Shown here in pieces: positions 16,074 to 48,689 of a stretch of DNA of 64,000 bases. The stretch lies in IMG/VR virus record IMGVR_UViG_3300035670_000079, positions 1 through 64,000 of that record. One strand, written 5' to 3'. The notes beneath the pieces are model-generated. The model saw only the letters and a list, made by a program, of their open reading frames with translations, was not told the DNA's origin and did no database searches. The translations under genes and the position numbers were made by a program. Origin of the DNA: a virus. Within the stretch, counting starts at the first letter, position 1. Each line of letters begins with the position of its first letter.

Positions 16074-16163
16074 CGCCCCTTAGCATAATGGTAATGCCTC
16101 CGGCTTATACCCGGATCAGCGTCTGATAAACGCGAGATGTAGGTTCGACTCCTACAGGGGTGA
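16074..16163 (+). tRNA. atypical ~90-nt tRNA with anticodon loop CUUAUAC (UAU, Ile-type) and a 23-nt extra arm
   Basis: Hand fold: acceptor CGCCCCT/AGGGGTG, D arm GCAT-aatggta-ATGC, anticodon arm TCCGG-cttatac-CCGGA, extra hairpin GCGT-ctgataa-ACGC, T arm GTAGG-ttcgact-CCTAC. Confidence 0.6.
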
Positions 16164-16214
16164 CTTAGAGTTGTAGGTTACTACGAGTATTAGTACCATT
16201 CTTGGGAGATAGCT

Positions 16215-17408: not shown

Positions 17409-17609
17409 ATGCTCAAGCCCATGATGCTTTCCACTATTCTGGTGGATATGGCTGACGTGATTTGTGTGGATTCTTATGAATCTGAGGAGGAGGGTTATGT
17501 CCTGCGTGTGTTGTTTAGGAATGGTGACGAGCGCTATATCTCAGGTTTGACCTGTGAGGAGGCGGCTAAGATAGTGGTATCCGCTTTTGAGATGCTGCGA
17601 CAGCAATAA
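17409..17609 (+). CDS. hypothetical protein
   Basis: Track ORF of 66 aa. Confidence 0.5.
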   Translation: MLKPMMLSTILVDMADVICVDSYESEEEGYVLRVLFRNGDERYISGLTCEEAAKIVVSAFEMLRQQ

Positions 17610-17651
17610 GTGTAGTGGGGATATGGCGAAATAGGCAGACGCATCGGACTT

Positions 17652-18325
17652 TGGGGGACTCTTTACAGTGAAGCCTTATCATAACTGCAAGATTTCCGGA
17701 CCCTTCTTACGTAAGGATGGGCGGCAGCATGTTGTAGTCGTACATTCTTGCGGTAAACGGACTACCGTATCTTACCCGAAGTACTTAATGGAGTGCCATC
17801 TGGGTAAGTATCTTGCAAGTAATGAGACGGTTGATCACATTGATCAAAATTTTAGGAATAACAATCTTGACAATCCTAGGGTTATGGACAGAGTTGCTCA
17901 CAGTCGCAAAGATGCTTTGAGACTGCTACCGGTTGACCTGAGATGCCAAGTTTGTGGGAAGTCCTTCAGCCTTGTCGGTAAGAGATTGCACGACGCTATT
18001 TACAATAGAGCTAGGGGTAAGAAAGGACCATTTTGCTCTAAGAGTTGTGCAGGTATTGGAGGTAGGCTGAAACTCCCATTAGTGGAATTGCCTAGAATTT
18101 TAGAGTCCAATGGAGCCTTTGAGTAGAAATATTCAAAGTGGACGGGGCTAATTCGGTGAATCCTCTGATCATGGTAACGCCGAGCTAGGCTTATGGTAAT
18201 GATCCATAAGTTGAGTGTAGAGACTTTACACCCCGCACCTAAGTCTTGCTTATGTAAGATATGGTGAAGACAAAGTCCAGACTACAAACGCACTTAATTG
18301 CGGCGTCGAAAGACGTAGTAGTACG
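17652..18325 (+). mobile_element. group I intron (IC3-like core) carrying an HNH homing endonuclease ORF
   Basis: It sits between U34 and A35 of the tRNA-Leu anticodon and ends in G. Core-like blocks are ctaattcggtgaatcc (18148), atggtaacgccgagctaggc (18171), gtgtagagact (18215) and cacctaag (18236). They resemble the Azoarcus/cyanobacterial tRNA introns as I remember them. Confidence 0.7.
17668..18126 (+). CDS. intron-encoded HNH homing endonuclease
   Basis: Motif YPKYLMECHLGKYL..ETVDHIDQNFRNNNLDN..RVAH, plus C-terminal CQVCG..CSKSC. Confidence 0.8.
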   Translation: MKPYHNCKISGPFLRKDGRQHVVVVHSCGKRTTVSYPKYLMECHLGKYLASNETVDHIDQNFRNNNLDNPRVMDRVAHSRKDALRLLPVDLRCQVCGKSFSLVGKRLHDAIYNRARGKKGPFCSKSCAGIGGRLKLPLVELPRILESNGAFE

Positions 18326-18392
18326 AAAATCCGATGGGGGTTACCCCGTGTGGGTTCGAGTCCCACTATCCCTAATTCTTAGAGGTAGCGTT

Positions 18393-18794
18393 ATGGAAGA
18401 GTTTGCTGAGCAGCTACGCGAGTTTATAGCTAATTGGCAGCAATTCAATAAATCTGCCACTGTATTTCGTGGTAGCAGTAGGTGGATTCACGTTGATGAA
18501 CTCTCGGCTTACCTTAGGATATCTCTTAGATATATCAACGGCACTTACTGCACCGTGTTAGACGTAGCCTCTGTTACAGTACATGACGAGAACTTAGGTT
18601 ACTGTCAGCAGATATTTAGGCTAGTGGAATCCGAGGCATCTAAAACTGTAGGTGGTGTTTTTGTTGAGAGTGTGTGCCACCCTGCTATGGCACACATTTG
18701 TGAAAAGCGTGGTTACTCCCGTATTAGTAATGGCGGGGGTTTAAATTACTTCAAATGTAAGGATGAATTATGTACTGCAACGACCCTGCTGTAG
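18393..18794 (+). CDS. hypothetical protein
   Basis: ATG 18393 lies just after the tRNA 3' exon. The upstream part of track ORF 18261..18794 reads through the intron and exon. Confidence 0.55.
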   Translation: MEEFAEQLREFIANWQQFNKSATVFRGSSRWIHVDELSAYLRISLRYINGTYCTVLDVASVTVHDENLGYCQQIFRLVESEASKTVGGVFVESVCHPAMAHICEKRGYSRISNGGGLNYFKCKDELCTATTLL

Positions 18795-19344: not shown

Positions 19345-19992
19345 ATGCGTCGATTAGACGTACCCAAGAGCGTGCTGCTGAAGATAATCTCAGACCGCCC
19401 CTTAATTAACCTGAAGAGTCTAGCTGCTGTTGCCCAGGTTAGCCCTAAAATAGCTCGCAGGCTTTGTAAGGTATATGACCTTAAGCTTGCCGGTAAGCAT
19501 ACGCGATCGGTAGTTAGTTACATCAAGTTAACTGCTGCTGACGTGGAAGAGTTACGGGCTAGGCATGCTGCGGGGGATATGATTAAGGAATTAGCTCGCC
19601 GCTATAAGATTAGCCGCCAACGTATTTATGAGCTGTGCGGTAAGCGGCGTACCCCCGCTGTGCGTGCCCCTAAAGTACGCAAGCCACGCTTAGGTAAGCA
19701 CGGCGAAAAATACAATATGCTACTCGCCGGACCTAAGCTTAGTAATGCACAATTAGCCGCCCAGCTAGGTATAAGCTTAGACAGCCTGTACCAGCTAGAT
19801 TACCGGCGTCGGCTTAATGGTCTGCCTACCATGAATCCTAGTGGTCGTCCTTATAATAGGACACCTCCGGAGGTGGTTAAAGCAATACACGCAGACTTAG
19901 CGGCTGGTTTTAGTGACGCGGCCATAGCTAAGAGGCAAGGCGTACCTAGATACATTCCTAAAGGGTACAGGAAACGCTATGTCAACAGCTAG
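19345..19992 (+). CDS. multi-HTH DNA-binding protein (paralog family member 1)
   Basis: Modules IKELARRYKISRQRIYELCGK and RRRLNGLPTMNP...PPEVVKAI are shared with the next two genes. Confidence 0.6.
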   Translation: MRRLDVPKSVLLKIISDRPLINLKSLAAVAQVSPKIARRLCKVYDLKLAGKHTRSVVSYIKLTAADVEELRARHAAGDMIKELARRYKISRQRIYELCGKRRTPAVRAPKVRKPRLGKHGEKYNMLLAGPKLSNAQLAAQLGISLDSLYQLDYRRRLNGLPTMNPSGRPYNRTPPEVVKAIHADLAAGFSDAAIAKRQGVPRYIPKGYRKRYVNS

Positions 19993-20293
19993 GGATACCC
20001 TTCTAAGTGAGGTCAGTGCGTTAATAGCCGTAGAACCTAACTTAACGCTGGCCGATATTGCCAAACTCTTGCAGTATAACCAAAGATACTTGGGTAGGCA
20101 GCTTAGCGGTACAGCCCTTAGGAAGAAGATACGAAACAAGGCTAGGGGTATGCGTTACTCTAAGCTTAATGCTGCTAAGCACGAAGAGATACGGGCACTA
20201 CGCCTTAAGGGTAAAAAACTGCGAGAACTCGCAGAGCAGTTTGGCGTAAGCCATCAAATGATTTCACAAATATGTTCAAAGGGGTTAAAATGA
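19979..20293 (+). CDS. HTH DNA-binding protein (paralog family member 2)
   Basis: Module KHEEIRALRLKGKKLRELAEQFGVSHQMISQICSKG. Confidence 0.6.
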   Translation: MSTARDTLLSEVSALIAVEPNLTLADIAKLLQYNQRYLGRQLSGTALRKKIRNKARGMRYSKLNAAKHEEIRALRLKGKKLRELAEQFGVSHQMISQICSKGLK

Positions 20294-21231
20294 CAGTTCA
20301 CAGGGATGAGTTGCAGGTAAAAATACAAGAGCTACTGGATAAGGAGCCTACCCTAACTATTAGGGAAATTGCTGACGAGCTTAGACACTGTCAGCAAGTT
20401 GTCAGCGATACTATGAAAGCTATGGGAGTTAAGTCTCTACGCGAGCGTAGGACTGCGGATGCTGTTATGCGTATGCGGATGCTCTTGCAGGATGCGCCTG
20501 AGATTACGTTGGCTGAGCTTGCTGCTAATCTAGGATACTGCGAGGAGTATGTAAGGGGGATGGCTAAAGCTGCGGGCATTACGCTTAAGCGTAAGCCGGT
20601 TGCTGTTAAACGGTATTCTAAACTTAGTTCGGATAAGTACGAAGAGATACGTGTACTTCGCCGCACAGGTAAGACGTTACGCCAGCTTGCTAAGCAGTTC
20701 GGTATAACTTATCAAATGGTATCCCTTATCTGTAAGGGGATTAAGGTTGAACGTGAGCCTAAGCTGATTATACCTAAGGCTGAGCTTGAGCAGGCTATTA
20801 AGTCTGATCCTGAGGCTGATCTTAAGAGCCTCGCAGCTAAATTTAACAGTAGTGTATCCCGTGTACGCTATGCAATACAGCGATACGGGCTTAGTTACAA
20901 GTCTAAGCTGTACCGTCCGTGGAGTAAGCTTAACAAGATGTATGATGCGATATTGGCATCGGGAGTTAAGCTCACTAATAATGAGCTGTATGCTCGCTTA
21001 GGGGTTAGCCGCGTTCACGGCGGGATTATTACGCTGCGTAGGCGACGTAAGGGTTTGCCTACGATGAACCCTAAGACAAAGACTTACTCTCCCGGCCCTA
21101 GTCCGGAGGTGGTAGCACAGGTAGAGGCTACGCTTAATAGCGGGCTTGGTGTAACAGCTACTGCTAGAGAATTAGGTCTTAAGCATACTCAAGTAGCTTG
21201 GATACGGCGGAAGATGAAGCGAGTACGCTGA
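20290..21231 (+). CDS. multi-HTH DNA-binding protein (paralog family member 3)
   Basis: ATG 20290 has an ATGA overlap with the upstream gene. Modules KYEEIRVLRRTGKTLRQLAKQFGITYQMVSLICKG and RRRRKGLPTMNP...SPEVVAQV. Confidence 0.6.
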   Translation: MTVHRDELQVKIQELLDKEPTLTIREIADELRHCQQVVSDTMKAMGVKSLRERRTADAVMRMRMLLQDAPEITLAELAANLGYCEEYVRGMAKAAGITLKRKPVAVKRYSKLSSDKYEEIRVLRRTGKTLRQLAKQFGITYQMVSLICKGIKVEREPKLIIPKAELEQAIKSDPEADLKSLAAKFNSSVSRVRYAIQRYGLSYKSKLYRPWSKLNKMYDAILASGVKLTNNELYARLGVSRVHGGIITLRRRRKGLPTMNPKTKTYSPGPSPEVVAQVEATLNSGLGVTATARELGLKHTQVAWIRRKMKRVR

Positions 21232-44509: not shown

Positions 44510-45364
44510 ATGGCGTCTTCGGGTTTTGGTCCAACTCATCCATCTAATACCAGTACGGCTGACATACTCGGCGACGTACAGTCACTCGGTATAGTGGCAG
44601 CGTCGGTTAGTGCCGGCTCTGCCCCTTCGACGCCAGCCACTCCTGATTTTGGGGAGATGACTGATAAAGAGTTTGAAGAGATGCTTACGCTTGATCGTAG
44701 GAAAAAGACTGCCTACGATCTTTACTCTAAGCAAGTTCCTGTCAATACAATCGCCAAGCACTTTAGAGTTGCCTCATCGACAGTCTACAACTGGATTAAA
44801 GACTATCGTGATAGTGTTACTACTAGGTACACAAGCAGGACTCGTTCTGATTTACTCTTAGATAGCATAAGTTTTCTTGAACTTATTCGAGATGGCGCGA
44901 TGATGGAAGTTCATAATGTTGACCTCCGGGTAGCTTCTGCCGCCGCCGGTACTGGTAAATCTCTTGAAGGTCGCGCTAAGCTTGCGGAGCTGGCTACTAA
45001 GCGTAAGTTCATGGAATTAGCCGTAGACGCAAATACGCATATATTCACCGAATTGCTCAAAACTGGCGTACTGCCGAACGCCGTTAAAGAAATGCATTGT
45101 TCGTTTGAGGCTACTCGTCCAGTGGTCGCAGATTCGCGCGATGTTAAGGCCGTCAAGAGCCGGGAAGAACTTGAGGCATCTATTTTGGACTTGTTGAGAT
45201 GTGGACGAACTATTGATATCAAAGATGAGGCAGAAGAGGAGGTTCCGGATGGTAAGTACGGTAAACGACTTGGGGAAGATGCTGGAGACAGCATCGGAAC
45301 AGGAACTTGTGCGGGCGCAGAAGCTTCTGGAGATACGCAACAACCGAGTCCTGTTTGCAACTAA
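44510..45364 (+). CDS. terminase small subunit-like HTH protein
   Basis: HTH VNTIAKHFRVASSTVYNWIKDY. It lies immediately upstream of TerL and overlaps it. Confidence 0.55.
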   Translation: MASSGFGPTHPSNTSTADILGDVQSLGIVAASVSAGSAPSTPATPDFGEMTDKEFEEMLTLDRRKKTAYDLYSKQVPVNTIAKHFRVASSTVYNWIKDYRDSVTTRYTSRTRSDLLLDSISFLELIRDGAMMEVHNVDLRVASAAAGTGKSLEGRAKLAELATKRKFMELAVDANTHIFTELLKTGVLPNAVKEMHCSFEATRPVVADSRDVKAVKSREELEASILDLLRCGRTIDIKDEAEEEVPDGKYGKRLGEDAGDSIGTGTCAGAEASGDTQQPSPVCN

Positions 45365-46952
45365 GGCACACATAAATAGTCGTGGTGAACCCCTAAACTT
45401 TGTGGATTATCCGCATATTCGAGAACTATATAATTCTGCTGCGCCTCACATAATTCTTAAGGGGTCTGTGCAGTGCTTTAAGAGTGAGTTTATCATTGTA
45501 GACCATTTTGCTGCCGCTGTAGCGGGCTTATCAATATTCTTTGTGCTCCCTAAAGTGGAATCACGCAGTACCTATGTTCAAAACCGGATTAATCGAACAG
45601 TTGAGAATGTAGATGCCTATAAGACAATTATCGGAGAAAGTTTCTTTGACAGTGTTATCCTTAAGAGTTTCGGCAAGGGCGTTATTAAATATGTGGGTTC
45701 TAATAGTATAGCGGACTTCCGAGAGTTCCCGGCTGATATGCTGATAGTGGATGAATATGACGAATGTAACATGGATAATATTGCGTATGCGTCTGACCGG
45801 TTACGCGGATCACCTTACCAGTTTTCTAGGCTAATAGCTAACCCTAGTATAGTTGATGGCGGCATAAGTCAACTTTATAAGGATTCATCTCAAAAGGCTT
45901 GGCATGTGCCGTGCTATGCTTGCGGTAAGTACTCTGAAGTAGACTGGTTCAAAACAGTCGTCCGAGAAGTACGCGACGGCGGTAATAACATCATAGACTA
46001 TGCGTTAAGGGATACTGAGTGGGAACCCGGCATGCGCCGGGATATTTATTTAATCTGTCCACATTGTAATGGCGCAATGCTTAGGCATAGTAAGAAGGGT
46101 AAGTGGGTTCCGAAGGTGCCAGATCACCCCATAGAAGGGTATCACTTATCTATGCTCACTAGTTTGCTTAATAGAGTCTCCGACATGTACCGGAGATTTA
46201 AAGTTGCACAACATGATCCTTCAGCTTTGCAGCATTTTTACTCATCTGAATTGGGTCTAACCTATGCAACCTCTGACAATAAAATTACGCTGGATCTTTT
46301 GAGAAGTTGTACGCAGGGTGGGTATAATTTTGAGATTCAGGATAGCTATGCGTCTATTCCCGGAGATGCCTGTGTTGGACCATGCTCTATGGGAATAGAT
46401 GTTGGAAAGTCGCTTGATGTTAGGATTAGTCGTAAGCTACAGAATGGCAAGCGATTGGCCGTATTCATTGGAAAGGTCTTCGGACAGAGTAACGTGCTGG
46501 AGTTGATTGAACGATATAATGTACAAGCTGTCGTAATGGATGCTGGACCCGAACTGGCCTTTGCTCGTGAGACGCAGGAGATAGTTCAAAATGAACTCGG
46601 ACTTGAAATGTGGTTATGCCGTTTTAAGGGTAATGATGGTACTCCCGGTAATATCACTCATAACGAAGTTAGTCGTACTATATCTATAGACCGCACAGAA
46701 GGTTTAGATAAAGTTCTCAGTGAGTTACGCAGAAAGCGTACAATTCTACCGGAGAACTTTGAAGCTATCTATCAGGGTGGTTATAAGGCCGAGATGTGTA
46801 CGCTGAATAGAATAGCAGAGGAGGATGCTAAAGGTCGTAAGAAATATAGGTGGGTCGGAAAGGATGCCGACCATTCTATGTTCGCTGATCTTTATGACAT
46901 CTTAGCGTCAAGTTTTATAGACTCTACTCCGATCGAAGCCATAGTCGGCTAG
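45279..46952 (+). CDS. terminase large subunit (GpA-like)
   Basis: Walker-A-like LKGSVQCFKSE, Walker B MLIVDEYDE, and Cys pairs CYACG..CPHCNG. It is followed by the portal. The start is uncertain (ATG 45279, GTG 45309 or track 45201). Confidence 0.8.
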   Translation: MLETASEQELVRAQKLLEIRNNRVLFATKAHINSRGEPLNFVDYPHIRELYNSAAPHIILKGSVQCFKSEFIIVDHFAAAVAGLSIFFVLPKVESRSTYVQNRINRTVENVDAYKTIIGESFFDSVILKSFGKGVIKYVGSNSIADFREFPADMLIVDEYDECNMDNIAYASDRLRGSPYQFSRLIANPSIVDGGISQLYKDSSQKAWHVPCYACGKYSEVDWFKTVVREVRDGGNNIIDYALRDTEWEPGMRRDIYLICPHCNGAMLRHSKKGKWVPKVPDHPIEGYHLSMLTSLLNRVSDMYRRFKVAQHDPSALQHFYSSELGLTYATSDNKITLDLLRSCTQGGYNFEIQDSYASIPGDACVGPCSMGIDVGKSLDVRISRKLQNGKRLAVFIGKVFGQSNVLELIERYNVQAVVMDAGPELAFARETQEIVQNELGLEMWLCRFKGNDGTPGNITHNEVSRTISIDRTEGLDKVLSELRRKRTILPENFEAIYQGGYKAEMCTLNRIAEEDAKGRKKYRWVGKDADHSMFADLYDILASSFIDSTPIEAIVG

Positions 46953-46967
46953 TTGCAAGACTTGCAA
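46953..46967. promoter_or_regulatory. intergenic copy of the dispersed palindrome TTGCAAG-A-CTTGCAA
   Basis: The context is tag|TTGCAAGACTTGCAAggggtgatcATG, between the TerL stop and the portal SD. Confidence 0.6.
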
Positions 46968-46976
46968 GGGGTGATC

Positions 46977-48689
46977 ATGCCGTCCGCCGTAGATACACTT
47001 GAGTTTACCGAAGACTCCGATGAAGTCGTTGAGATTACTGAAGCCTTCATCGTTGGGGACGGTGATGCTGAGACCATTACAACTGATCCCTTAACGTCCT
47101 TTATAGCAAGTCTTCAAAAGTCTGCAAAATCTACATCGCCTGAGGGTACGTTTGACGTACTTAAAAGCGTCGTAGGTAGTCAGCAGATATTGGAATTGCC
47201 GGCAGGTATCACGGAGAAAGTGGTACCTCCGCCATATAATCCGGCTATACCTTTGTTTTTTCTGCAAATGGACGAAGTAGTTCATAGAGCCGTAATGGCA
47301 AAGGCCTACGATTCCGTAGGTGTTAAATTTAACCTAGTGCATAGGAAAGCACCCGATGGTCAACCTACAAAGAATGAACGTAAGGTTAAAGCTGAGTTAG
47401 AGGAAATACGGACCTTTATAGAGAATTGCAACGAAGCGTTTGGCTTTACCGGCGTACTCACCAAAACCTGTATGGACATGGAAGCTGTAGGTTGGGGTGC
47501 CATTGAAGTTATCCGTGGCGCGGATATGAAGATAAAGAAAATTGATCACGTACCGGCTCAGCGTATACAGGTAGCTCGTGGTTGGGAGTATTTTGTAGAA
47601 TCATTTGCCGGAGAGGTTCGATACTATCAACCGTTCGGTAGGAAAGTTGTAAGTAAGACTAGACGCCAACTTGATGGCAAGCCCGCAAGCTTTGATCCAC
47701 GATTAGACGGCGGACCTCCTACTGCTGTAAATGCGCAGTTTAACCTTATTGACGCAACTACCGGTCAAGGCACTGAAAACTTCTTAAAATCCGCTAATGA
47801 AATTTTATGGTTTACTAAGCATCACCCTGCCACCGTGTACTACGGAGTTTCCGATAGCGTACCGGCCAGATCGCAGATACTCGGCAACATTCATATTAGA
47901 GAGTATCTATTGCAGTTCTTTGAGCACAATACTGTACCTCGTTACGCTATTATCGTTAAAGGTGCCAATCTGTCTCCGGAGGTTAGAGACGCTATCTTAA
48001 GCTACTTCCAAACTAATATCAAAGGTAGAGCACATAAGACATTGTTTATACCTATTCCTAGTGTTAGGGGCAATATTGAAGTTAAGTTTGAAAAACTGGA
48101 TATGGGTACTGAGAATAGTTTCTTCAAAGATATCTCCTTGGAACTTGCCCATTCTATCGGACGCGCTCACGGTGTACCCTCGGCTATTTTAGGTTTTAGT
48201 GAAGCGGCTTCGCTTGGTTCTGGTAAAGGCACTGCTCAGAACCAGATGTACAAAGATAGGGTCATTACACCACTTCAGGAGAAATTCAGTACAGCTATTA
48301 ATGCCATGTTTTCTAAGGGTTTAGGTGTATCCAATGTAGATATTATATTTAATCCCCTCGATATTCGTGATAGGGAAGCTGAGGCTCGGCTGTACGGACA
48401 ATTATTTGATAGGGGTAGTGTGACTATTAATCAAGTTATTGAAGCTTTTCAACTGGGTAAGCCTATTGAAGGTGGTGACAGGGCATTCATTAAGTTTGGC
48501 AATAAGATTGTATTTATTGATGAGTTGCCCGGTATGGAGTCCGGAGATATCGGAGAAGATGAACCTCCGGCAGGTGATAATGGTGCTCCCGGAGTGCCTA
48601 AGACGCCTGATGGTAATAGTAAGACTAAGAAAGGTCCGGAGAATACTCCAGATAATATGATAGAGTCTCAATTATCTGGAAAAAACTAA
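46977..48689 (+). CDS. portal protein
   Basis: A ~570-aa ORF directly after TerL and before the protease/scaffold and capsid genes. The acidic/Pro-rich C-terminus is typical of portals. The call is positional. Confidence 0.7.
   Translation: MPSAVDTLEFTEDSDEVVEITEAFIVGDGDAETITTDPLTSFIASLQKSAKSTSPEGTFDVLKSVVGSQQILELPAGITEKVVPPPYNPAIPLFFLQMDEVVHRAVMAKAYDSVGVKFNLVHRKAPDGQPTKNERKVKAELEEIRTFIENCNEAFGFTGVLTKTCMDMEAVGWGAIEVIRGADMKIKKIDHVPAQRIQVARGWEYFVESFAGEVRYYQPFGRKVVSKTRRQLDGKPASFDPRLDGGPPTAVNAQFNLIDATTGQGTENFLKSANEILWFTKHHPATVYYGVSDSVPARSQILGNIHIREYLLQFFEHNTVPRYAIIVKGANLSPEVRDAILSYFQTNIKGRAHKTLFIPIPSVRGNIEVKFEKLDMGTENSFFKDISLELAHSIGRAHGVPSAILGFSEAASLGSGKGTAQNQMYKDRVITPLQEKFSTAINAMFSKGLGVSNVDIIFNPLDIRDREAEARLYGQLFDRGSVTINQVIEAFQLGKPIEGGDRAFIKFGNKIVFIDELPGMESGDIGEDEPPAGDNGAPGVPKTPDGNSKTKKGPENTPDNMIESQLSGKN

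Follow-up and report, generated by a model that had tools for sequence, protein, structure and literature searches.

A split tRNA-Leu(UAA) gene in a phage contig

The window examined here, a 64,000-nucleotide (nt) stretch of viral DNA corresponding to positions 1 to 64,000 of the IMG/VR record IMGVR_UViG_3300035670_000079, contains a tRNA-Leu(UAA) gene in two halves. The halves are separated by 674 nt, and this insertion consists of a group I intron of subtype IC3 with an open reading frame (ORF) for an HNH endonuclease in its 5′ part. The principal features, with the gene that follows them, are:

17617..17651 (+): tRNA-Leu(UAA) 5′ exon, comprising the acceptor 5′ strand, D arm, anticodon stem 5′ strand and C32-U33-U34 (ARAGORN on the joined exons)
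17652..18325 (+): group I intron of the IC3 subtype, running 674 nt from U17652 to the omega-G at G18325 (ARAGORN intron mode, Rfam RF00028 and covariance model R1)
17668..18126 (+): HNH endonuclease ORF, 152 amino acids (aa), GTG start, with a C-terminal CxxC...CxxxC zinc finger that resembles zf-FCS
18326..18374 (+): tRNA-Leu(UAA) 3′ exon, comprising A35-A36, anticodon stem 3′ strand, extra arm, T arm, acceptor 3′ strand and discriminator A
18393..18794 (+): downstream protein gene, outside the element, with ATG 18393 as the probable true start and GAGG 8 nt upstream of it

When the two exons were joined, ARAGORN in default mode identified a tRNA-Leu(taa) with a 7-bp acceptor stem, a 3-bp D stem and the anticodon loop CUUAAAA. 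The joined tRNA has a GGGG-UUA-CCCC extra arm and a UUCGAGU T loop, and CCA is not encoded in the 3′ exon. The long extra arm, 3-bp D stem, discriminator A and anticodon UAA of the spliced form are those of a bacterial type-II tRNA-Leu, and the 3′ half resembles annotated tRNA-Leu genes of Aeromonas and Mycobacterium phages (short blastn matches). The 674-nt insertion was also recovered on the genomic DNA by ARAGORN in intron mode. It lies in the anticodon loop between U34 and A35, with the junction CUU/...G/AAAA (splice sites are written as slashes in such strings). The 5′ exon ends in U17651, which fits the group I rules, and these rules, by which a U precedes the 5′ splice site and the intron closes with a G, place the junctions at 17651/17652 and 18325/18326 and hence give Leu(UAA). 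A preliminary description, made by inspection, had proposed a type-II tRNA-Leu(UAA) split after U34 by an insertion ending in G. All of the sequence elements that it listed were recovered at the same coordinates, including the exons 674 nt apart, and ARAGORN accepts the joined exons.

Searches that do not allow for the split, namely ARAGORN in default mode and Rfam with its gathering score applied, missed this gene in the 64-kb window. The only tRNA found by ARAGORN in default mode was a tRNA-Ile(UAU) at 16074-16164, to which Rfam at the gathering threshold added nothing. In the ORFs of the window, TTA makes up 18.5% of the Leu codons and ATA 30% of the Ile codons, and both values fit the two tRNAs of the phage. 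A 1062-nt contig from sample 3300034072 of the Joint Genome Institute (JGI) is 100% identical to positions 17475-18536, so the arrangement has been assembled twice, the two assemblies being possibly non-independent. The window also encodes a large terminase (45201-46949), a portal protein (46953-48686) and a head protease-like protein, and nearly all of the long ORFs are on the + strand.

The IC3 core and the reading frame in its P1 loop

To assess the core, IMG/VR was scanned for the P4-P5-P4′ signature ATTCGGYGAA-N(8-38)-GGYAACGCCGAGC, which returned 69 contigs, and a covariance model (R1) was built from 22 distinct compact cores lying inside ARAGORN-detectable split tRNAs, with the window left out. 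RNAalifold recovered P3, P4, P5, P6, P8 and P9 from the 22 cores, with compensatory changes in 19 of 30 pairs. R1 matched the window at 18107-18333 with 156.5 bits (E ~7e-45) over model positions 1-207 of 207, and this was its sole match in the 64 kb. The score is mid-range for the family and equals those of two ORF-less tRNA-Leu introns from metagenome-assembled genomes (MAGs; loci L085 and L087). The general Rfam model RF00028 (Intron_gpI), applied with a relaxed threshold, matched 18091-18299 with 35.2 bits (E 4.2e-7), short of its gathering score of 50; it fits P6 and P9 of the window intron poorly. The intron in the window has a complete, undecayed IC3 group I core, in agreement with the class assigned to it in the preliminary description.

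The conserved core helices P3-P4-P6 and P7-P3-P8, with the P3/P7 pseudoknot, are all present. Among 61 distinct relatives the helices are canonical in 85-100%, with several pair types, and P3, P8 and P9 covary. P7, the P9 outer helix, P9a and P2 are outside the structure of the model yet are paired in the relatives. The structural elements are:

17649..17653 (+): P1 5′ strand, exon C-U-U and intron U-G, partner 18111-18115 (from the sequence); the pairs are C17649-G18115, U17650-A18114, U17651.G18113 (the splice-site wobble), U17652.G18112 and G17653.U18111
Between P1 and its proposed extension: internal loop GG/AA
17656..17662 (+): proposed P1 extension, 5′ strand GGACUCU, 7 bp with 18102-18108, closing the ORF loop; also the purine-rich stretch before the GTG
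18102..18108 (+): proposed P1 extension, 3′ strand AGAGUCC, inside the ORF (from the sequence and RNAduplex)
18111..18115 (+): internal guide sequence U-G-G-A-G, in which GAG 18113-18115 pairs with exon CUU; aligned to the UUGAGC block of the relatives
18117-18125 with 18130-18138 (+): P2 hairpin, 9 bp, GAAA loop 18126-18129, ORF stop within
18143-18147 with 18231-18235 (+): P3, canonical in 52-55 of ~58 relatives, 4-6 pair types per position
18153-18158 with 18178-18183 (+): P4, canonical in 55-56 of 56 relatives, fitting the scan pattern
18162-18163 with 18173-18174 (+): P5, 2 bp; J4/5 and J5/4 also lie within 18153..18183
18184..18216 (+): P6 (18184-18186 with 18214-18216) and P6a hairpin (18190-18196 with 18204-18210)
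18220..18225 (+): P7 5′ strand GAGACU, guanosine-binding helix, A18221 bulged, G18220 and G18222-U18225 pairing with A18274-C18278
18236-18239 with 18263-18266 (+): P8, paired in 51-53 of 53 relatives, 4-5 pair types
18244-18249 with 18254-18259 (+): P8a hairpin
18238-18243 and 18260-18264 (+): 11-nt GAAA-tetraloop receptor motif in P8, CCUAAG and UAUGG (from the sequence)
18267..18278 (+): J8/7 AAGACAA and P7 3′ strand AGUCC (18274-18278), AGUCC being invariant in the alignment
18281-18285 with 18318-18322 (+): P9 outer helix, ACUAC with GUAGU, paired in 39-41 of 47 relatives with a C-G to U-A exchange
18289-18291 with 18300-18302 (+): P9a
18303-18316 (+): P9b, GCGUC-GAAA-GACGU, 3-5 pair types in relatives
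18325 (+): omega-G, with the tail AGUAGUACG/AAAAUCC aligned to AGUGGUAAG/AAAAUCC of the relatives

The P7 pairs are found in 51-55 of ~56 relatives and are nearly invariant, and the inner positions of P2 pair in 37-42 of ~58 relatives with 5-6 pair types. A short P5 is common to many relatives. The two GAAA loops, at 18126-18129 (L2) and 18308-18311 (P9), together with the receptor motif in P8, the lack of a P5abc-type extension and a core of ~230 nt outside the ORF, make up the compact IC3 architecture. The single defining trait of classical IC3 tRNA introns in which the window intron departs from them is that they are ORF-less, as it has the 152-aa HNH ORF in L1.

The guide triplet and the end of the 5′ exon vary together among the relatives: GAG is found with CUU (Leu, Ser and Ile), GUG with CAU (Met), GGU with ACU (L045) and GGA with UCU (L012). 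Because the triplet changes with the exon end, the internal guide sequence is fixed by comparative evidence. The P1 extension is a perfect complement that was recovered by RNAduplex and is plausible as a helix. Two other partners for the exon were considered and rejected. One pairs exon GGACUU with GAGUCC at 18103-18108, and the other, suggested by RNAcofold, uses CCUAGA at 18091-18096; in both cases GAG 18113-18115 was preferred since it is homologous to the guide of the ORF-less relatives and covaries with the exon ends. Minimum free energy folding of mini-constructs was uninformative.

The 3′ part of the intron needs a different account from the one first given. The preliminary description had ended the core near 18263, leaving 62 extra nt, and had called the 3′ architecture unusual. 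As in all of the relatives, those bases form J8/7, the P7 3′ strand (18274-18278) and P9.0-P9, and the architecture is normal, with a covarying outer helix (18281-18285 with 18318-18322) and a GAAA-capped P9; the Azoarcus sequence used for that comparison was truncated. The GAAA hairpin that it had noted at 18304-18315 does exist and forms the end of P9.

The HNH ORF matched PHROG 14913, 'HNH endonuclease', with E 3e-22. A search of 5.8 billion proteins gave 79 homologues with 36-59% identity, most of which have a precomputed PF13392 (HNH_3) assignment. Alignments of 14 and 30 sequences have a set of invariant residues (D17, S35-Y36-P37, L40, E42, E53, H57, N69, C93, C96, C123 and C127), and all of them are kept in the window ORF. 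Its HNH motif residues are D56-H57, N64/N65, N69 and H77, with H57 and N69 invariant in the 30 sequences. The homologues align with the N-terminus of the window protein from the GTG at 17668, so the JGI call, which begins at M41, is too short. An AlphaFold2 model had a mean confidence (pLDDT) of 92.7; its best match in BFVD was an HNH nuclease of Salmonella phage SSE121 (E 2e-13, TM 0.71), and the top 23 named BFVD matches were all HNH or homing endonucleases.

The preliminary description had placed an HNH endonuclease ORF in the 5′ part of the intron, and its position can be refined: the ORF sits in the P1 loop and reads on through the guide into P2, taking in the 3′ strand of the proposed P1 extension and the 5′ strand of P2. 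It stops at TAG 18124-18126, a codon that extends over the last P2 pairs and the first loop base. Its sequence makes the ORF an intact representative of an HNH family that is found time and again in association with tRNA(UAA) genes. It appears to encode a phage nuclease of the HNH_3 type, with a putative role in homing.

Relatives of the intron and the nuclease

IC3-split tRNAs were detected by ARAGORN with introns in at least 35 of the 69 IMG/VR contigs. Eighteen are tRNA-Leu(UAA) genes interrupted at the identical site, and the others include tRNAs for Met, Ile, Ser, Thr, Lys and more. Eight of the 18 viral tRNA-Leu introns are 587-685 nt long. The HNH family of the window occupies the same P1 loop of tRNA-Leu(UAA) introns in four other lineages (L022, L034, L073/L074 and L078/L079), in each case followed directly by an R1-positive core. 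L073 and L074 carry the protein P0005 (55% identity), and L078 and L079, within a tRNA cluster, carry P0013 (52% identity). A second, unrelated HNH family was found in L1 in L033 and L060 and in P6 in L006 and L055, and L067 has another ORF in P6. The window core is nearest to that of an ORF-less intron (L015, 75% identity) and has 57-62% identity to the cores with the same HNH family, which hints that the nuclease genes and the ribozymes may have had separate histories.

Members of the same HNH family were also found free-standing, with no intron nearby, immediately 5′ of and overlapping an uninterrupted tRNA with the anticodon UAA. There are five such contexts, and they include L001, L075-L077 (P0028), L080-L083 (P0069) and the Salmonella phages PVP-SE1 and SSE121 (46% identity). 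When the window protein itself was searched for in IMG/VR, the one locus returned was L001, a free-standing homologue without an intron. In PVP-SE1 (L093, NC_016071.1, 1972-1974) and SSE121 (L094, 1008-1010) the TAA stop codon of the HNH ORF is exactly the tRNA anticodon, the ORF extending 38 nt into an uninterrupted 86-nt tRNA-Leu(UAA). The free-standing HNH ORF of PVP-SE1 is without annotation in the record.

Two cultured phages have split tRNAs that are unannotated. Agrobacterium phage Atu_ph07 (L088 1386-1747; MF403008.1, ~112,890-113,251) has a tRNA-Leu(UAA) with a 278-nt intron (R1 150.8 bits), and in this cultured jumbo phage a 'hypothetical protein' coding sequence (CDS), AUZ94936.1, is annotated over the 3′ end of the intron and the 3′ exon. 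Gordonia phage Daredevil (L089 1340-1651, NC_048021.1) has a tRNA-Lys(UUU) with a GC-rich IC3 intron of 238 nt, ~570 nt from an integrase gene; this split tRNA may be an attP or tRNA integration site copied from an intron-bearing host tRNA. The uncultured huge phages LR756511 and LR756501 have tRNA-Leu(UAA) genes with introns of 700 nt and 205 nt, respectively, also unannotated. In bacteria, MAGs of Thiotrichaceae and Pseudomonadota have ORF-less introns at the same Leu site, in a tRNA operon for Gly(GCC), Cys(GCA) and Leu(UAA). The scan of MAG contigs used a subtype-specific pattern and returned only 4 contigs, and the host of the phage was not identified in this way.

Several of the loci have features of their own. 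In L002 and L069, both from IMG/VR, a tRNA-Leu(UAA) contains a 679-nt intron with a large P6 insertion that has no sense-strand ORF of 50 aa or more; the inserted sequence, whose last bases ahead of the core are ...TTTCAT, looks as if it codes on the opposite strand, which would place an antisense ORF inside a ribozyme loop. L070 (389-1013 of the extracted region) has two adjacent split tRNAs, Ile(UAU) with a 218-nt intron and then Leu(UAA) with a 211-nt intron. L015 (UViG_3300014205_000177) and L084 (JALNXG010000002.1) are the same 177,804-bp contig, deposited both as an IMG/VR viral genome and in a 'Melioribacteraceae' MAG, and represent either a huge-phage contig binned as a bacterium or the reverse. 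Outside tRNA genes, Pelagibacter phage HTVC120P (L090 1281-2455, MH598807.1) has an IC3-type core (R1 142.5 bits) between two 'capsid protein' CDSs, which makes it an intron, missing from the annotation, in the gene for the major capsid protein of this cultured pelagiphage.

The tRNA-Ile(UAU) of the window (16074-16164, +) is one of three examples, with L078 5193-5284 and L062 334-424, that are 91-92 nt long and have an extra arm of ~20 nt, and the other tRNA-Ile(UAU) genes in the fetched loci are of the ordinary 75-77 nt. The loop of the long arm holds an anticodon-like GAU (GCGU-CUGAUAA-ACGC in the window, GCGC-CAGAUUA-GCGC in L078 and CGGU-AGAUG-ACCG in L062). The arm might be a mimic of the GAU anticodon arm that is recognised by isoleucyl-tRNA synthetase, with the real anticodon UAU reading AUA. 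In L078 (5193-5510) a second IC3 core lies ~130 nt past the long tRNA.

A sigma-70-like site is present on the + strand at 17547-17575 (TTGACC, 17 nt, GATAGT), inside the preceding ORF and ending ~40 nt upstream of the tRNA-Leu gene; such sites are rarer in the window than in shuffles, and this one carries little weight. Downstream of the element, a longer version of the next ORF, begun at 18261, would run across P8-P9 and the 3′ exon. A restart at 18393 appears reasonable, if unproven, because of the GAGG and because RNA genes fill 18261-18374; no related loci or homologues of this ORF were found in IMG/VR to settle its start. Further on, three + strand ORFs (19345-19992, 19979-20293 and 20272-21231) share repeated helix-turn-helix-like segments, for example KLS..K.EEIR.LR..GK.LR.LA.QFG.S.QM.S.IC, and look like a tandem family of small DNA-binding proteins across 19345-21231.

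Mechanism, alternatives and known systems

The locus is very probably a phage tRNA-Leu(UAA) gene cut between U34 and A35 by a 674-nt IC3 intron that carries an HNH homing endonuclease gene in its P1 loop. After transcription the ribozyme would fold, with exon CUU pairing with the guide GAG at 18113-18115 and the wobble U17651.G18113 marking the splice site. Exogenous guanosine bound in P7 would attack after U17651, omega-G18325 would next occupy the guanosine site, and the exons would be ligated. The predicted spliced junction is GGACUU-AAAAUCC, GCATCGGACTTAAAATCCGATGG. The product would be an 84-nt tRNA body that is matured by RNase P and CCA addition and reads UUA and UUG. The HNH protein, translated from GTG 17668 on the unspliced or the excised RNA, would nick or cut, close to the anticodon region, any intron-less tRNA-Leu(UAA) gene of a co-infecting relative, and repair off the intron-bearing copy would spread the intron and its flanks; the phage's own gene would be shielded, its target being split by the intron. 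Folding would hide the purine-rich ribosome-binding stretch, which is part of the proposed P1 extension. Because the ORF runs through the P1 extension, the guide and half of P2, any one transcript should either be translated or fold into the ribozyme, not both. Solutions of this kind for ORFs that reach into intron core sequences have been reviewed (PMC3984707).

Several observations weigh against this reading. Splicing, translation of the HNH protein and cleavage are all predictions from the DNA, and RF00028 remains below its gathering score. The RNAduplex energy of the P1 extension is no better than that of shuffles (z -0.5). Pfam HNH_3 scored 19.7 bits on the window ORF, under the curated cut-off of 24.8; residues 69-70 are NP in the window versus NL, otherwise well conserved; and the ORF has a GTG start with a non-canonical Shine-Dalgarno sequence that is merely G-rich. 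A Foldseek search of the PDB with the HNH model gave no match with E < 0.6, and in a sequence profile search of the PDB I-HmuI was marginal (E 0.05) and the rest was zinc-finger noise. Searching the region with megablast and blastn against 50,697 GenBank phage records revealed no relative, just short matches to tRNA-Leu exons, so there is no intron-less allele of the same gene to show a presence/absence polymorphism.

Could the gene be a tRNA-Phe(GAA) instead, with both junctions one base upstream? The check with intron models suggested in the preliminary description bore out the 674-nt insertion, yet ARAGORN -i shifted the junctions by 1 nt and called tRNA-Phe(gaa). This call was rejected because the intron would end in C18324 instead of G and because a Phe anticodon would be placed on a type-II body, with its long extra arm and 3-bp D stem; in bacteria such bodies belong to tRNAs for Leu, Ser or Tyr. 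The guide GAG pairs with the CUU that ends at U17651, and ARAGORN, which does not apply group I rules, made the Phe call for L006 and L022 too, both of which are Leu(UAA) once spliced. We find the Phe assignment scarcely credible. It is also very unlikely that the contig is bacterial, prophage or chromosome, and the intron an ordinary bacterial tRNA-Leu intron. Similar ORF-less introns do occur in bacterial-looking tRNA operons (L085 and L087), and IMG/VR and MAG bins overlap, as with L015 and L084 (Melioribacteraceae). Against this, the window has terminase, portal and protease genes, its long ORFs are almost all on one strand, no housekeeping genes were seen in it and its just two tRNAs are both for codons commonly supplemented by phages; an integrated prophage would in any case still be a phage genome. 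Decay is a further alternative, in which splicing has been lost or the HNH gene has died, leaving a tRNA-Leu pseudogene as a passive passenger. The general Rfam model under its threshold, the 2-bp P5, the GTG start and the HNH_3 score under its cut-off would all fit a relic. The full-length 156.5-bit R1 match, equal to those of bacterial chromosomal introns in a tRNA operon, does not, and neither do the intact helices, omega-G, U.G pair, J8/7, GAAA loop and receptor motif, nor the full-length ORF with every invariant residue kept. TTA is a well-used codon and the short P5 is shared with many relatives, and we regard decay as highly improbable.

The nuclease might instead, or in addition to homing, serve as a weapon in competition, cutting the intron-less tRNA-Leu(UAA) of rival phages or a leuZ-type gene of the host. 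The phage copy, its site split by the intron, would be immune and the sole intact source of tRNA-Leu(UAA), and the gain would be that rivals are excluded or the host is taken over. Free-standing family members beside intact tRNA(UAA) genes in unrelated phages fit a target-specialised lineage of this sort, and the exons on either side of the site (GACGCA-N-CGGACUU/AAAAUCCG) closely resemble the bacterial tRNA-Leu(UAA) of L085 and L087. Intron endonucleases can mediate marker exclusion, and SegB of phage T4 reportedly causes preferred inheritance of its tRNA region. SegB has also been treated as an immune-evasion factor (PMC13096335). Against such a role, the uninterrupted tRNA(UAA) beside each free-standing copy would have to be a resistant allele. 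We consider this role unlikely. A broader proposal can be put forward only tentatively, as possible but doubtful. One HNH lineage specialised on tRNA(UAA) may have been caught in both stages of a mobile intron, free-standing (PVP-SE1, SSE121, L001, L075 and L080) and then in the P1 loop (the window, L022, L034, L073 and L078). Such phages would then be the long-missing horizontal vehicle of the 'ancient' tRNA-Leu(UAA) intron among bacteria and phages, and could also disable the tRNA-Leu genes of rivals or hosts.

As the textbook example of an 'ancient' intron, the tRNA-Leu(UAA) intron has been the subject of argument since the 1990s over whether its history is vertical or horizontal. With phage-borne, endonuclease-equipped tRNA-Leu(UAA) introns, horizontal transfer becomes directly testable. 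There is also an annotation gap, with phage tRNA inventories undercounted and protein genes called across ribozymes. The value of the locus lies in the many unrecognised examples that accompany it, cultured phages among them, and in one nuclease family tied to tRNA(UAA) both inside and outside an intron. With a 230-nt ribozyme, a 152-aa nuclease and an 84-nt target, it is a compact system for studying translation of an intron ORF versus P1/P2 folding.

Among known systems, the classical bacterial and plastid tRNA-Leu(UAA) intron shares with the window intron the gene, the site between U34 and A35, the IC3 core, a short P1 formed by CUU and GAG, and a GAAA-capped P2 and P9. The ORF-less tRNA-Leu(UAA) introns from MAGs are ~70% identical to it over the core. 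Classical introns are ORF-less, ~190-310 nt long and chromosomal or plastid, whereas the window intron is 674 nt long, has an HNH gene in L1 and is in a phage. The IC3 intron of the Azoarcus tRNA-Ile, the structural reference for this subtype, shares the blocks AAUUCGGxGAA, GGxAACGCCGAGC, GUGUAGAGACU and AGUCCAG, the L2 GAAA with the 11-nt receptor motif in P8, and the L9 GAAA. It differs in its tRNA and insertion position and in having no ORF, and P5 of the window intron is without the canonical receptor motif. To our knowledge, the only tRNA group I intron described as encoding a homing endonuclease is that of the Synechocystis tRNA-fMet with I-Ssp6803I, reportedly the work of Bonocora and Shub in 2001 (cited in PMC3984707). 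I-Ssp6803I resembles the nuclease proposed here in targeting the anticodon region of a tRNA gene, but it is said to be of the PD-(D/E)XK class and its intron lies in tRNA-fMet on a bacterial chromosome, in contrast to an HNH protein, tRNA-Leu and a phage. T4 SegB, free-standing in a phage tRNA cluster, resembles the free-standing members of the window family but is a GIY-YIG rather than an HNH enzyme. Bonocora and Shub are also said to have proposed, in 2009, a pathway in which a free-standing homing endonuclease gene invades an intron, and the window HNH family has both free-standing and intron-lodged members at tRNA(UAA).

Phage counterparts are I-HmuI of SPO1 and similar nucleases, where an HNH_3 or I-HmuI-like enzyme is likewise encoded in a peripheral loop of a self-splicing intron (splicing of the window intron being predicted) and the ORF overlaps core helices, as in the window (PMC3984707). 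Those introns interrupt protein-coding genes whereas the window intron interrupts a tRNA, and the match of the window protein to I-HmuI is marginal. A 2014 review placed every phage intron known at that time in protein-coding genes (PMC3984707). That generalisation is contradicted by an endonuclease-bearing intron in a phage tRNA gene, and with dozens more such split genes the explanation of the restriction to protein genes by endonuclease target preference needs revising. The 'enigmatic introns' in tRNAs of Lak megaphages were presented in 2019 by Devoto as the first introns in phage tRNAs; classification was tried with Rfam, no class was given and no endonuclease gene was reported (PMC6784885). 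Compared with these unclassified introns, the window intron is a clear IC3 ribozyme with an endonuclease gene. A 2026 survey merely counts 'intronic sequences in tRNAs' (PMC13037316). Our literature search, incomplete in coverage in that most subscription journals lay outside it, found no description of an endonuclease-bearing group I intron in a phage tRNA gene. The view that such introns are rarely reported in phage tRNA genes therefore holds for the literature (PMC3984707, PMC6784885) but not for the sequence data, with at least 35 IMG/VR contigs and two cultured phages. The element in the window is not a new kind of system; it combines two known kinds, the tRNA-Leu(UAA) IC3 intron and the HNH-bearing mobile intron of phages.

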